NCBI GenBank assembly: GCA_031412945.1
Contig: JANODY010000006.1
Coordinates: forward strand, 35,224-99,223
Length of the DNA stretch: 64,000 bases
Source of the DNA: Cyanobacteria bacterium SOY_65_metabat_81
Lineage (GTDB): Bacteria; Cyanobacteriota; Cyanobacteriia; Pseudanabaenales; Pseudanabaenaceae
Direction: 5' to 3'
Part shown: one piece after another, positions 4,721 to 35,259 of the stretch
Layout: each line of letters starts with the position of its first letter
Position numbering within the stretch: position 1 is the first letter of the stretch
Translations under genes and position numbers: made by a program
Notes under the pieces: model-generated
What the model was told of the DNA's origin: nothing
Database searches by the model: none
What the model saw: the letters and a program-made list of their open reading frames with translations, nothing else

Positions 4721-5859
4721 CCAATAGCCAAGATATTCAAAGCCGCATTATGGTCACGATCCAAAACAGTACCGCAATGACTGCATTGATGAGTGCGCTC
4801 ACTCAGCGATTTCTTGACTGTTGTTCCACAGGTTGAACAATTCTGGCTCGTATATTGTGGTGGCACGGCGATCGTCACCTTACCAAATACTTTGCCAAAA
4901 TACTCAACCCAATCTCGAAACATATACCAGCTAGCGTCAGATATTGACTTAGCTAATTTATGATTCTTGACCCTTACGGGTTTGCCAGTCGCTTCAAGTC
5001 GGTAAACCCGCCCAACGCGCTGGCTCACCATATTCCTCACCTGCAAATCTTCATAGGCAATCAGGTCGTTAGACCGAACTACGCACCTTGCTGTCTTTAC
5101 TGCAAAGTCTTTACGCTGCCTACTTACTTGCAAATGTTTTCTTGCTAACCGTTTTATTGCTTTTTTACGATTAGCTGATCCTCTCTTTCGCTTAGCAACT
5201 TTACGCTGCAACTTCTTGAGTTGACGCTCTGATTTTCTAAGAAATTTAGGGTTCTCAACAGTGTTGCCACTACTATCGGTATAGAAATGGTTTAATCCAA
5301 CATCTAAACCAGTTGTGGTTTGAGTTGGTGTCATTTCTTCCCTGCGATCAACATCAACACAGAATTGAGCGTAGTAACCATCAGCCCTTTTTACCAGCCT
5401 GACTCGTTTAATTTGCTCGATCGCGTAGAAGTTTAAATCGCGAGAGCCAACTAATTTGAGCCTGCCAATCTTGAAACCATCGGTCAAAGTTAGATATTTA
5501 CGATCTTCAGATAGTTTCCACCCAGTTTGTTTGTACTCAACTGAGTGACCTCGCTTCTTGAATTTTGGATATCCTTTCTTGCCTGATACTTTCTTTTTGC
5601 AGTTATCAAAGAATCGATTGATTGTGGCCCAGGCTCTCTCAGCGCTGGACTGTCTTGCCTGCGAGTTTAGCTTCTTAGCAAAATCAAACTCCTTGGCTAA
5701 TACAGCACACAGCGCAGATAGATCATATTTACTAGCACCTCGATTGTCCATCCAGTGCCTCAAAGCCTTATTACGCACGAACAGAGCCGTACGAATCGCC
5801 TCGTCAATGAGACCATACTGCCCTGTTTTGCCTTTTAGTTTTGCTTCGAGAACCAACAT
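4651..5859 (-). CDS. tnpB: RNA-guided endonuclease TnpB (IS605 OrfB family)
   Basis: 402 aa. RuvC triad candidates are D in TGLDVGLN, E in IAYEDLQV and D in LDRDHNAALN. Zinc ribbon CSTCG...CSHCG. Confidence 0.9.
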   Translation of the reverse strand: MLVLEAKLKGKTGQYGLIDEAIRTALFVRNKALRHWMDNRGASKYDLSALCAVLAKEFDFAKKLNSQARQSSAERAWATINRFFDNCKKKVSGKKGYPKFKKRGHSVEYKQTGWKLSEDRKYLTLTDGFKIGRLKLVGSRDLNFYAIEQIKRVRLVKRADGYYAQFCVDVDRREEMTPTQTTTGLDVGLNHFYTDSSGNTVENPKFLRKSERQLKKLQRKVAKRKRGSANRKKAIKRLARKHLQVSRQRKDFAVKTARCVVRSNDLIAYEDLQVRNMVSQRVGRVYRLEATGKPVRVKNHKLAKSISDASWYMFRDWVEYFGKVFGKVTIAVPPQYTSQNCSTCGTTVKKSLSERTHQCSHCGTVLDRDHNAALNILAIGLNRVGHTQISTPVESSTSAFQI

Positions 5860-6290
5860 GAGTTTGGCTTAATCTTAGTCTTACTATCATAGCGTAAGTG
5901 TTGCTAATTGTGACATAATCTAGAAGAGCAAAGCGAATAAGTTCGCTCGTCCGATTTTTGTCTCAGTATCTTATATTATTCTTTTAATGTTTGCCAGATT
6001 TTATTTTAGGCGAAATCACCAGTTAATATCCTCTCGATCGCGATGATTCGCCTTAGCAGATTGTTTCTGTTCGGGGCTTACAGTCGCTCCACAGACATTA
6101 ACCCTGAGTTTCCCCCTTGCCATATTGTTTGTATAATCTAAATAGGGGTGGCAAATGTGGTAATTGACGATCGCGCTATTTACCGCGCTATTTAAGGGGG
6201 AGATTGTCTTTAAGCCCTAGTCTAAAGTAAACTTTTGCTAAGCATAAAAAACAAGTTATAAAATCTTTTTGAAATACATAAGGAAAATTA

Positions 6291-8903: not shown

Positions 8904-8922
8904 ATCGGCGCAAAGCGCCGAT
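8904..8922. terminator. Bidirectional terminator hairpin
   Basis: ATCGGCGC-AAA-GCGCCGAT between the convergent moaC and HMA genes. Confidence 0.65.
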
Positions 8923-8925
8923 TTA

Positions 8926-9120
8926 TTAATTGACTTTGTGACCTGCGATCGCGATTAGCTCCCGAAGTCTGACTTCGGGCAGATGACTCTCGATCGCCAA
9001 AGATTTAGTTAATGCGTCACCTACGATTATGGCGGACGCATCAACGGATTGGATGGCTTTGGTAATAGTTTCAATACAACTAGCACAACCGATCGAAGGA
9101 ACTGAAAGTTTTAAGGACAT
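8926..9120 (-). CDS. Heavy-metal-associated (HMA) domain metallochaperone
   Basis: 64 aa with the GCASC CxxC metal site near the N-terminus. Confidence 0.8.
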   Translation of the reverse strand: MSLKLSVPSIGCASCIETITKAIQSVDASAIIVGDALTKSLAIESHLPEVRLRELIAIAGHKVN

Positions 9121-9272: not shown

Positions 9273-12101
9273 ATGCAAAACATCCTAGATCATATTCAAT
9301 GCGGAATCTTTGCGCTGACGATTGAGACAGATATCGATGTACTAAATATTAGTGATCCCAAATTTACATTACGGTTCGCGATCGCCAATACTGTCTTTGT
9401 ACATCTTGTTTTTGGAGAGCGTCTTGTCGATCAGACTGGAAATCTAATCGGGTTACAGCCCCATGAGTGCTTGCCTCTGGAATTTGCCCAATTATTAAAC
9501 ACAAATGTTAATAAATGTTTACAATCTCAACAGTGTGTTGAGTATGAAGCAAAGCTCGATCTGATCACTAATCGTCTTTTATCAGTTTCACTGTCGCTAA
9601 AGATTGATATCGATCATAATTCACTTCAAATTATTGGTACTTGTCAAGATATTACCAATTCATCGCTATCTAAATCTCAAGTCAAACATTTTAATAACCA
9701 TAAATTTAGTCGTCTAGTCAATGACATTTCAGACGCTGTGGTAGTGGTCGATGGCGATGGAGTTGTACGCTATGTCAACCAATCTGCCGAAAACATGTTT
9801 GGCTGTGCATCTGAAAAGATTCTCGGCGAGACTTTTGGATTGCCTGTGGTATCAGGCGAAAGTACGGATATTTCCATTCTTAATCGAGGTAAAACAACCT
9901 CAGCAGAAATGCGTGTATCGGAAACAATGGACGAAGATCGCATGGTCTATGTCGTCGCCTCGCTGCGTGATGTTTCCGAACGAAATCGGGTGGAAGAGTC
10001 TTTAAAATTACGCGATCGGGCGATCGCCGCTAGCTCTAATGGCATTGTTATTACCGATGCAACTAAACCCGAAAATCCAATAATCTATATAAATCCTAGT
10101 TTTGAACGAATCACAGGCTATGGGGCGGCGGAAGTGATTGGGCATGATTGTCGATTTTTGCAAGGGGGCGATCGCCATCAAAGCGGCGTTTTAGATTTAC
10201 ACAAAGCAATTGCAGAAAAGCGAGAATGTCATGCTGTTCTGCTCAACTATCGCAAAAATGGCGCACCATTTTGGAATGACTTGTACATTGCACCCGTATT
10301 TAATGATTATGGTGAACTCACAAATTATATTGGCATCCAAACTGATATTACTGAGCAAGTAAAATCGACTCAAAGATTAATTGAAAGCGAAGAATGCTTG
10401 CGTACAGTTTTAACCTCGATCAAAGAAGGTATTACCTTTAGCGATGATCGGGGCTATTTTGCTATCTTTAATACTGGGATGGAAAACTTAACTGGTTACA
10501 GTATTTCCGAAGCCAATTCTAGTCGAGATTTCGCAAACTTTTTATTTCCCGATCGCATTGAACATGACAAGTCTTTACAGCGATTGCAACAACTTCAAGA
10601 AACGGGGCGAGCCATGACTGTTGAAGCACATATTCGTCATAAAGATGGCACATTTAAAGATGTATTAGTTTTCACAAGACTGATGGCATACAAAGGTAAT
10701 CGGATGTATTTAAGTAGTTATTATGATATTACTGAAACAAAAAAAGTAGAAGCACAATTACGCTATCAAAATGAAAGAGAACGTTTGTTAAATGCAATAT
10801 TACTTAAAATTCAACGTGAACTAAATCTAGATCAAGTCCTATCAATTACCGTTAAAGAAGCTCAAGAATTATTACGCATCGATCGCGTAGTAATTTATCA
10901 GTTTCAAGAAGATTGGAGTGGTGTTTTTGTAGTTGAAGCAGTTAATGATCCATCATTAACAATCATTGGAAAAACAATTGGTGATAATTGCTTTAGAACA
11001 GATCATATTCAAAAATATCGAAACCAACCTGTTTCTAGTATAAATGATGTAAATGCTGTCGAATTAGATCCTTGCCACAAACTGCTTTTAGACCAATTTC
11101 AGGTTAAGGCAAACATTGTTGTTGCTATTTCATTTGGCAATACCCTATGGGGGTTATTAATTGCTCATCAATGCTTTGCTCCCCGTCAATGGGAAGAATT
11201 TGAAATAGATTTGTTGACCCAATTGGCTAATCATGTGGCGATCGCTATTCAACAAGCCAAGTTATTTGAACGAGTCCAAGAGCTTAATAAAAATCTAGAA
11301 CTACAAGTTGCCGATCGCACTCAACAATTAGAGCAAAGTTTAGGTCAGTTAGAGAGAGCTTTGCTCAAAGAAAAAGAATTGAATTCATTAAAATCTCAAT
11401 TTATTTCTAGAGCTTCCCACGAGTTTCGGACTCCACTTGCCACGATTCAATCGGCAAGTGACTTGCTCCGAAATTATGGACATAAGATGTCTGACAACAA
11501 AAAATTAGAAAAATTAGATAAAATCCAGCGCGAAGTTAAAGGAATGACCAACTTATTAGAGGAGGTTCTAGTTATTGGTAAAACTGAATCTGAGAAATTT
11601 AAATTACAGGAAGAAGAGATCGAAATTAATAGTTTCTGCCTAGAAATCATCGAACAAATTAAATTATTAGCAACTAATAAACATCAAGTTGTATTTAAAA
11701 ATATTAATGCTTTCTCTAAAATAGAGATTGACTCTAAGTTCTTTAGACAAATTATTTCTAACTTGTTATCTAATGCAATTAAATATTCCCCCAATGGCGG
11801 CGAAATCAATTTTAGAATTTCACAGACAAATGAGTCTATTCCTCATCTTTTGTTAGAATTTGTCGATCATGGAATCGGCATTCCCTTAGTTGATCAAGAA
11901 AAGATTTTTGATCATTTTTACCGCGCTCATAATGTGGGCGTAATTAGCGGCACTGGCTTAGGAATGGCGATCGTTAAAAATTCTATTGACATTCTTGGTG
12001 GATCAATTCAACTTGCGAGTGTTGAACATGAGGGGACAACTATCAGCGTGAGATTACCTTTAAGGCGATCGCCTAGCCATAGCGATTTGCGCCCTAATTA
12101 A
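9273..12101 (+). CDS. Multi-sensor histidine kinase: PAS, LOV, PAS, DXCF-type GAF, HisKA, HATPase
   Basis: LOV core IVITDA...NPIIYINPSFERITGY...GHDCRFLQG (Cys293). GAF with DNCF (Cys573) and DPCH (Cys601) then LWGLLIAHQC. H-box SHEFRTPL. G-boxes DHGIGI and GTGLGMAIV. Confidence 0.9.
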   Translation: MQNILDHIQCGIFALTIETDIDVLNISDPKFTLRFAIANTVFVHLVFGERLVDQTGNLIGLQPHECLPLEFAQLLNTNVNKCLQSQQCVEYEAKLDLITNRLLSVSLSLKIDIDHNSLQIIGTCQDITNSSLSKSQVKHFNNHKFSRLVNDISDAVVVVDGDGVVRYVNQSAENMFGCASEKILGETFGLPVVSGESTDISILNRGKTTSAEMRVSETMDEDRMVYVVASLRDVSERNRVEESLKLRDRAIAASSNGIVITDATKPENPIIYINPSFERITGYGAAEVIGHDCRFLQGGDRHQSGVLDLHKAIAEKRECHAVLLNYRKNGAPFWNDLYIAPVFNDYGELTNYIGIQTDITEQVKSTQRLIESEECLRTVLTSIKEGITFSDDRGYFAIFNTGMENLTGYSISEANSSRDFANFLFPDRIEHDKSLQRLQQLQETGRAMTVEAHIRHKDGTFKDVLVFTRLMAYKGNRMYLSSYYDITETKKVEAQLRYQNERERLLNAILLKIQRELNLDQVLSITVKEAQELLRIDRVVIYQFQEDWSGVFVVEAVNDPSLTIIGKTIGDNCFRTDHIQKYRNQPVSSINDVNAVELDPCHKLLLDQFQVKANIVVAISFGNTLWGLLIAHQCFAPRQWEEFEIDLLTQLANHVAIAIQQAKLFERVQELNKNLELQVADRTQQLEQSLGQLERALLKEKELNSLKSQFISRASHEFRTPLATIQSASDLLRNYGHKMSDNKKLEKLDKIQREVKGMTNLLEEVLVIGKTESEKFKLQEEEIEINSFCLEIIEQIKLLATNKHQVVFKNINAFSKIEIDSKFFRQIISNLLSNAIKYSPNGGEINFRISQTNESIPHLLLEFVDHGIGIPLVDQEKIFDHFYRAHNVGVISGTGLGMAIVKNSIDILGGSIQLASVEHEGTTISVRLPLRRSPSHSDLRPN

Positions 12102-35157: not shown

Positions 35158-35259
35158 AATTTTAATTAAATAATTTATTTGTCTTTAAATGCAATTTTGG
35201 CGATGCTGCCCATACTTTATGTTATGGTTATCAGCCTATCTAATAAAAAAGTATCAGCC

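Follow-up and report, generated by a model that had tools for sequence, protein, structure and literature searches.

A cyanobacterial histidine kinase predicted to join a flavin-binding LOV domain and a two-cysteine bilin-binding GAF domain

Can one histidine kinase read light through two unlike pigments, a flavin and a bilin? The question is raised by a gene of Cyanobacteria bacterium SOY_65_metabat_81, a member of the Pseudanabaenaceae (assembly GCA_031412945.1). The window, by which we mean the whole stretch of DNA that was analysed, is 64,000 nucleotides long and corresponds to positions 35,224 to 99,223 of contig JANODY010000006.1; coordinates below are those of the window unless another contig is named. 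A preliminary description of this DNA had noted that one kinase carries both a LOV domain and a GAF domain of the DXCF cyanobacteriochrome type, and had predicted that the two photosensors feed a single HisKA/HATPase output. The analysis presented here makes it rather likely that both predicted domains work as photosensors and act on the kinase, and that the protein is a real dual flavin/bilin photoreceptor kinase. All of the motifs and coordinates given in that description are exact in the open reading frame. The LOV and GAF domains both lie N-terminal to one intact HisKA/HATPase transmitter, an order consistent with two sensor modules acting on one output. The features that carry the argument are listed first, with the evidence for each assignment in brackets.

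9273-12101, + strand: gene for a 942-residue soluble multi-sensor histidine kinase (list of open reading frames and translation)
10011-10355, + strand: LOV domain, residues 247-361 (Pfam PAS_9, NCBIfam and PDB matches)
10149-10151, + strand: Cys293, predicted flavin C4a adduct cysteine in GHDCRFLQG (position; conserved in 111 of 111 sequences)
10824-11252, + strand: cyanobacteriochrome-type GAF domain, residues 518-660 (Pfam GAF, E 3e-19; PDB matches)
10983-10994, + strand: DXCF motif Asp571-Asn-Cys573-Phe574 with the predicted C10-adduct cysteine (gapless alignment to TePixJ)
11073-11078, + strand: Cys601-His602, predicted canonical bilin-attachment dyad (aligned on TePixJ Cys522-His523)
11166-11168, + strand: His632 in LWGLLIAHQC (aligned on the histidine of TePixJ LFGLLIAHQC)
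11391-11591, + strand: HisKA (DHp) domain, with His716 of SHEFRTPL at 11418-11420 (Pfam, E 1e-12)
11730-12065, + strand: HATPase_c catalytic domain containing the N, G1, F and G2 boxes, residues 820-931 (Pfam, E 4e-26)

Among 113 homologues with identities as low as about 46%, 99 retain the LOV cysteine together with both GAF cysteines, and the gene is present as one copy in 44 of the 48 species-level genomes of the genus, with 72-82% identity across the LOV-PAS-GAF module. Judged from these sequences, the three-cysteine pattern is beyond chance. The order of domains is PAS-like, PAS, LOV, PAS, cyanobacteriochrome GAF, HisKA and HATPase. Pfam recognizes three PAS-type domains, the middle of which is PAS_9 (E 6.6e-39), followed by GAF (518-659), HisKA (707-773) and HATPase_c (820-931); it finds no PHY domain in the kinase. 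The protein has no membrane segment and is cytosolic. The kinase boxes SHEFRTPL (His716), NLLSNAIKYS, DHGIGIP, FDHFYR and GTGLGMAI are invariant in 63 sequences, the invariant transmitter residues among the orthologues being H716, N830, N834, D865, G867, G869 and G893-G897. The N-terminus, including Met1, is also conserved among the orthologues, which supports the start codon.

The LOV domain is nearly canonical, in agreement with the preliminary description. IVITDA is found at residue 258, NPIIYINPSFERITGY at 268 and GHDCRFLQG at 290. Besides PAS_9, the NCBIfam models YtvA_fam (156 bits) and BluLightHisKinLov (136 bits), the latter a blue-light LOV histidine kinase model, recognize this region, both of them over the LOV part only. 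In the PDB it comes closest to the flavin-binding short LOV proteins 7r5n (E 1e-40), 7a6p and 3sw1 of Pseudomonas, followed by phototropin and aureochrome (E 1e-27), YtvA and the Brucella LOV histidine kinase. The flavin contacts Arg294, Gln297, Asn325, Asn335 and Gln356 are all present. In 111 aligned homologues these columns are conserved in 104, 108, 109, 102 and 110 sequences, respectively, and Cys293 in all 111. The aspartate ahead of Cys293 was considered as a possible defect and rejected, because the solved flavin-binding Pseudomonas LOV proteins have QDCRFLQ or DCRFLQ in common with it.

The GAF domain contains EDWSG at residue 546, GDNCF at 570, DPCH at 599 and LWGLLIAHQC at 625, which places Cys573 at 10989-10991 and Cys601 at 11073-11075. 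It aligns with TePixJ over 145 residues without a single gap, KTIGDNCFRTDHIQKYRNQPVSSINDVNAVELDPCHK lying on QVIEDPCFREHWVEAYRQGRIQATTDIFKAGLTECHL. Asp571 corresponds to Asp492 of TePixJ, Cys573 to Cys494, Phe574 to Phe495, Cys601 to Cys522, His602 to His523 and His632 to His553, where the TePixJ numbers, including that of His553, are obtained by an offset from the chain numbering. In TePixJ the bilin is linked to the two cysteines Cys494 and Cys522, and the subfamily is named after the Asp-Xaa-Cys-Phe motif (PMC9945933). The separation of 28 residues between the two cysteines, for which TePixJ had been named as precedent, is identical in the gapless HMMER alignments to 3vv4, 4fof and 6p58 (numbering according to PMC9945933). 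The TePixJ chains entered the alignments through a short and then a chimeric query giving the full TePixJ sequence. The register of the DXCF motif was taken from the gapless alignments to TePixJ, PPHK and NpR3784. Pairwise alignments to AnPixJg2 and NpR6012g4 were set aside, being inconsistent near this motif, where those proteins have an insertion of 4-5 residues.

A search of the PDB ranks PPHK (6oap, 3e-41) first, followed by miRFP670nano, which is derived from NpR3784 (4e-36), AnPixJg2, NpR6012g4, TePixJ (4e-26), Slr1393g3 and RcaE. The top 16 matches, from 1e-41 to 1e-22, are cyanobacteriochromes or near relatives among phytochromes with a stand-alone GAF domain, whereas the canonical PAS-GAF-PHY phytochromes match more weakly than 1e-9. 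The domain therefore belongs inside the cyanobacteriochrome lineage, as the alignment check called for in the preliminary description was meant to establish. When 1.84 billion representative proteins were searched exhaustively, one or more GAF domains having DXCF and Cys-His or Cys-Tyr occur in 97 of the best 148 non-self matches. A maximum-likelihood tree of GAF domains shows the orthologues as a monophyletic clade (support 99/93), nested in a cluster rich in two-cysteine domains and positioned beside two GAF domains of the same genome.

Several points weigh against the reading of both domains as working photosensors, and a further one concerns their arrangement. First, the position of the second phosphate-binding arginine of the LOV domain is occupied by His310; in 111 homologues this column holds arginine in 81 and histidine in 29. 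Second, the stretch that follows the DXCF motif is Tyr-Arg-Gln-Gly-Arg in TePixJ and Tyr-Arg-Asn-Gln-Pro in the kinase. Third, TePixJ falls into a different two-cysteine cluster of the tree, and by whole-domain score the kinase GAF is nearer to PPHK and the NpR3784-type domains than to TePixJ. Fourth, atypical photocycles are known for some DXCF-bearing domains elsewhere. Finally, the AlphaFold2 monomer model, calculated from an alignment of 63 orthologues, has a mean pLDDT (predicted local distance difference test) of 78.8 and a pTM (predicted template modelling score) of 0.37, and the low pTM means that the inter-domain geometry is not established. The third point qualifies the likeness to TePixJ that had been proposed: the motif and the cysteine positions are as in TePixJ, but the domain lies outside the TePixJ subclade. 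With a DXCF-type motif and neighbourhood, and with TePixJ in the other cluster, the domain is of the DXCF type and is not a close orthologue of TePixJ.

His310 bears on the possibility that light is sensed by only one of the two domains. The LOV domain might act as a dark sensor of redox state or flavin occupancy, or be an apoprotein owing to the Arg-to-His replacement, or the GAF domain might be free of bilin and keep its motifs by ancestry. Many PAS and GAF domains of cyanobacterial kinases are indeed not photosensors, and a paralogue in the same genome, with NCAFLQ in its LOV-like domain and a cysteine-free GAF domain, shows that such modules degenerate. Nevertheless, the LOV cysteine and the Asn/Asn/Gln flavin contacts are near-invariant, and the histidine variant coexists with arginine variants in an otherwise constrained family. 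In addition, Arg301 aligns with an arginine that makes a second contact to the phosphate in the PpSB1-type LOV proteins. The aspartate, both cysteines and both histidines of the GAF domain are under long-term conservation as well. We consider it quite improbable that either domain lacks a light-sensing role. In LOV proteins of the PpSB1/PpSB2 type, changes in the phosphate cluster tune the lifetime of the adduct and do not abolish binding. By this analogy, the LOV domain with His310 is expected to be functional and to have altered kinetics.

The GAF domain might bind its bilin at Cys601 while Cys573 forms no reversible second linkage. The result would be a one-cysteine sensor, for example of the green/red type or photo-inert, beside a working LOV domain. 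The closest solved relatives, PPHK (6oap) and the NpR3784-derived proteins, have a tyrosine at the position of the DXCF cysteine, and PPHK is a green-absorbing one-cysteine sensor (PMC11480761). Some orthologue lineages have exchanged Cys573 for Val, Ile or Tyr and retained the rest, so the scaffold tolerates one-cysteine chemistry. However, Cys573 is kept in 102 of the 113 homologues, together with Asp571 and Phe or Leu at 574, and the spacing of the two cysteines is exactly 28 in 85 of 94. The DxCFR...YR...CH context aligns with that of TePixJ without gaps, and 20 of the 25 most similar GAF domains outside its own cluster are two-cysteine domains. Among the same 113 homologues Cys601 is retained in 109, His602 in 100 and His632 in 112. 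The one-cysteine alternative is, in our judgement, very improbable for this protein.

In the few lineages that have Val, Ile or Tyr in place of the DXCF cysteine, the histidine beside Cys601 is often a tyrosine as well, while the LOV cysteine is constant. This suggests that, within the orthologous family, the colour of the bilin sensor was retuned in a coupled manner and the flavin sensor stayed fixed. Examples are found among metagenome orthologues of about 49% identity (P0090-P0095 and P0098): those with Val or Ile at the DXCF cysteine have Tyr for the histidine of the dyad, and two of the group, P0092 and P0093, carry Tyr in place of the DXCF cysteine and retain Cys-His, resembling PPHK in this respect.

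If both domains are photosensors, the protein would be a homodimer-type cytosolic kinase with two unlike sensors in series. From what is known of the family, the LOV domain (247-361) would bind flavin mononucleotide non-covalently, and light of about 450 nm would drive formation of the C4a adduct with Cys293, which would then decay thermally. With such a thermally decaying adduct, we propose that the LOV domain reports the fluence rate of blue light. The GAF domain (518-660) would attach phycocyanobilin autocatalytically at Cys601, possibly followed by isomerization to phycoviolobilin, as in TePixJ. By the same analogy, in the dark 15Z state Cys573 would be linked to the C10 bridge, giving a form that absorbs violet or blue light. 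Upon illumination ring D would isomerize and Cys573 would be released, resulting in a green- to orange-absorbing 15E form that can be photoreversed. Since the GAF domain is expected to be photoreversible, it is proposed to report a ratio of colours.

How the two sensor states might reach the transmitter is suggested by the connectors between the domains, which are listed here together with the remaining parts of the protein.

9273-9650, + strand: N-terminal PAS-like domain, residues 1-126 (AlphaFold2 model only, without a Pfam match)
9702-9992, + strand: PAS domain 2, residues 144-240 (Pfam PAS_4 and PAS_8; modelled PAS fold 150-233)
10350-10418, + strand: J-alpha-like helical connector between LOV and PAS 3, residues 360-382 (continuous model helix 360-382)
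10428-10727, + strand: PAS domain 3, residues 386-485 (Pfam PAS_3 at 400-471; model)
10731-10817, + strand: helical connector from PAS 3 to GAF, residues 487-515 (model helix 487-515)
11196-11486, + strand: continuous helix linking the last GAF helix, by way of the signalling helix, to DHp helix 1, residues 642-738 (model helix 642-738)

In the model, residues 1-126 are arranged as strands 11-19 and 31-38, helices 40-47 and 63-85, and strands 89-94, 102-112 and 117-126, an order that is PAS-like. The catalytic HATPase domain resembles the catalytic cores of HK853 and YycG (Foldseek TM 0.78-0.87). Foldseek matches to the whole model are generic multi-domain sensor kinases, including the Brucella LOV-PAS histidine kinase and full-length bacteriophytochromes, and give no insight into individual domains.

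Trp626 of the GAF domain and His716 lie 90 residues apart in 87 homologues; the separation is 83 in 14 others and 97 in a further 3, which accounts for 104 of 108 sequences; the other 4 have an extra inserted domain. The distance from Cys293 to Trp626 is 333 in 90 of 108. A linker whose length varies by exact heptads is the mark of a coiled coil that depends on register, as reviewed for photoreceptor kinases (PMC6798134). Modelled structure and spacing together point to a long helix from the GAF domain to His716 whose length changes only by heptads, and they lend support to a serial relay of both sensor states along one helical spine. With one long heptad-stepped helix, both sensors are expected to reset the register of the same coiled coil and in this way to set the balance between kinase and phosphatase activities; the sign of this regulation is something that we infer.

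What, then, would the kinase phosphorylate? Synteny points to a response regulator with the domains REC-GGDEF-EAL as the likely substrate. Its gene is found directly 3' of the kinase gene, on the same strand, in 53 of the 59 kinase-bearing genomes of the family, which belong to eight genera. Pseudanabaena sp. ABRG5-3 and Synechococcus sp. PCC 7502 both have it directly after the kinase, within the same upstream or an unrelated context, and their two regulators are 55% identical. In the genome studied here an orthologue of 86% identity resides on another contig (G000:C104:30001-31725, minus strand of the extracted locus), behind tig-clpP-clpX and an Hsp70-like gene. Its receiver aspartate and EAL motifs are intact and its GGDEF motif is degenerate, reading RGDEF (QGDEF in relatives). 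From these motifs the protein is most simply read as a phosphorylation-controlled phosphodiesterase of cyclic di-GMP (c-di-GMP). In other cyanobacteria c-di-GMP is under blue-light control by cyanobacteriochromes and a LOV protein (PMC10124867), which makes a c-di-GMP output plausible here. Taken with the synteny, the output of the system is probably the control of c-di-GMP turnover by the colour and intensity of light, leading to changes in motility, aggregation or mat behaviour.

The neighbourhood of the kinase gene in the window tells against this pairing. Upstream are tsaE, moaC and a small HMA-like gene, downstream is ilvA, and there is no receiver gene within about 10 kb. The junction between the kinase gene and ilvA is spanned exactly by a Logan contig of a public run (X1), which may be the source sample of the genome, and an assembly error at this point is therefore unlikely. 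With the partner on another contig and ilvA behind the kinase, the pairing is read from the relatives only. Both sensors might work and the kinase signal, in this organism, to another response regulator whose output is transcriptional or concerns motility; the moaC and ilvA flanks, their ilvA side confirmed by the independent assembly, are what favours such a change of partner. Yet the adjacency in 53 of 59 genomes and the retention of the 86%-identical orthologue argue that the pair persists after separation, and we think a different regulator unlikely. The relocated regulator and the presence of ilvA after the kinase mark a split, specific to this lineage, of a two-gene unit that is otherwise conserved. 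On the upstream side, the kinase gene is preceded by an intergenic region of 152 nucleotides, and moaC is ended by a hairpin at 8904-8922.

A more elaborate possibility is that the two sensors form one computation. The LOV domain would supply the intensity of blue light and the GAF domain a blue-to-green (or violet-to-orange) ratio, the two inputs combining non-additively on the shared coiled coil, so that the kinase would fire only for a particular combination of colour and brightness. It would be a natural logic gate for the light climate of sediment or mat, driving c-di-GMP. We regard this as rather unlikely. Intramolecular energy transfer may add to such a combined computation: flavin emission near 500 nm overlaps the absorption of a green-absorbing 15E bilin, so transfer from flavin to bilin is possible. 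In an engineered fusion of a LOV domain and a cyanobacteriochrome, Förster resonance energy transfer of about 22% was reported (PMC8707292).

All parts of the kinase come from known families, and among cyanobacterial multi-sensor kinases their combination is not surprising in principle. Both LOV domains and cyanobacteriochromes are well understood, and optogenetics makes wide use of each. The nearest precedents for either half differ from the kinase in several respects. TePixJ of Thermosynechococcus (3VV4, 4FOF/4GLQ, 6P58), the prototype of DXCF blue/green sensors, has the same positions of Asp-x-Cys-Phe, Tyr-Arg, Cys-His and the histidine of LLIAHQC, but is a protein of the methyl-accepting chemotaxis type without a LOV domain; the kinase GAF, in turn, belongs to another subclade rich in two-cysteine domains and lacks the Gly-Arg that follows Tyr-Arg. 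PPHK, a phosphorylation-responsive photosensitive histidine kinase from Leptolyngbya sp. JSC-1 (6OAP), gives a gapless GAF match of 170 residues that extends into the helix leading to the kinase, and likewise joins two inputs in a kinase based on a cyanobacteriochrome GAF domain (PMC11480761). Its second input, however, is a receiver domain rather than a LOV domain, and with Tyr at the position of Cys573 it is a one-cysteine, green-absorbing sensor. The LOV histidine kinases (Brucella LOV-PAS-HK, 6PH4, and the engineered YF1, 4GCZ) and the Pseudomonas short LOV proteins (7R5N, 7A6P, 3SW1) have the adduct cysteine and the flavin contacts in common with the kinase LOV domain. The latter also shares the Asp-Cys-Arg-Phe-Leu-Gln variant with the Pseudomonas proteins, and the LOV-helix-PAS-helix-kinase layout is similar to that of the Brucella LOV histidine kinase (Foldseek). 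Unlike the kinase, none of these proteins has a bilin-binding GAF domain, and the histidine in place of one phosphate arginine is a feature of the kinase.

Two photosensor classes that feed one output are combined in a single polypeptide in neochrome, which consists of a phytochrome and a phototropin LOV part. The same principle is found in Ppr (photoactive yellow protein, bacteriophytochrome and kinase; PMC5812497) and in dualchrome (phytochrome and cryptochrome; PMC8209157). In these three the sensor pairs and the organisms are different: none contains both a LOV domain and a stand-alone cyanobacteriochrome GAF domain, and none is paired with a REC-GGDEF-EAL protein. On the output side, SesA/B/C, Cph2 and the LOV-GGDEF-EAL protein SL2 of S. 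elongatus are sensors of the blue/green region that control c-di-GMP and thereby motility or aggregation (PMC10124867). They have sensor and GGDEF/EAL domains in one protein, whereas a two-component phosphorelay with two types of sensor is proposed here. Full-text literature searches and several reviews gave no description of a natural LOV-cyanobacteriochrome protein; earlier cataloguing in photoreceptor surveys is possible.

The kinase is a conserved protein of its family. A match is present in 59 of 71 species-level genomes, and five genera of the family other than its own have the full module at 45-56% identity. Among named proteins, those of Pseudanabaena species are nearest (about 78% identity), and Synechococcus sp. 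PCC 7502 has a more distant one (47%). In an even sample of 400 genomes of the phylum, the contiguous LOV-PAS-GAF module occurs outside the family in at least one genome, a count that is a lower bound because four candidates were scored per genome. Independent fusions of LOV and two-cysteine GAF domains are found in a few other cyanobacteria: in hybrid kinases of Coleofasciculus and Trichocoleus, in an Oculatellaceae kinase that has the same LOV-PAS-GAF module, in an Allocoleopsis kinase, and in PixJ-like chemoreceptors, which have two to four DXCF GAF domains followed by a LOV domain. The annotation of such fusions in other lineages is generic only (e.g. 'PAS domain S-box protein'). No RNA run containing the kinase sequence was found; the runs in which it occurs are freshwater sediment metagenomes, and the genome studied here likewise derives from a metagenome of freshwater sediment.

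The family offers a compact, soluble test case, conserved across a cyanobacterial family, for the integration of fluence and colour through helical linkers, and it has a ready candidate output in a phosphorylation-controlled c-di-GMP enzyme. Optogenetic two-component systems that respond to two colours could gain design rules or parts from it. The kinase could also help to explain how benthic Pseudanabaena judge their position within a light gradient.

Several other sequences of the same genome are related to parts of the kinase. A paralogous kinase in a frame of 1194 residues (G000:C83:100101-100997) has a LOV-like domain of 58% identity with the motif NCAFLQ, in which the arginine after the cysteine is replaced by alanine; a GAF domain without the bilin cysteines follows directly. 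This LOV-GAF module appears to have degenerated or been retasked. Two additional GAF domains are of the two-cysteine kind: one has DVCF and Cys-Tyr (G000:C102:55068-55544), the other DTCF and Cys-His with an insertion of 12 residues ahead of its WGLL motif (G000:C13:58864-59382). With these two, the organism would have several short-wavelength bilin sensors. A further cyanobacteriochrome-like GAF domain (G000:C42:35965-36423), which sits on a very long branch of the tree, contains Asp-Pro-Cys-Ile at the DXCF position and Lys-His in place of Cys-His, and may belong to the rare class whose members bind bilin solely by way of the second cysteine.

Between moaC and the kinase gene, at 8926-9120 on the - strand, lies an unannotated open reading frame of 64 residues with a GCASC motif typical of HMA copper-chaperone-like proteins. 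The same small gene, with a weak Pfam HMA match, is found at the equivalent place in Pseudanabaena sp. ABRG5-3 (5708-5902 of that locus).

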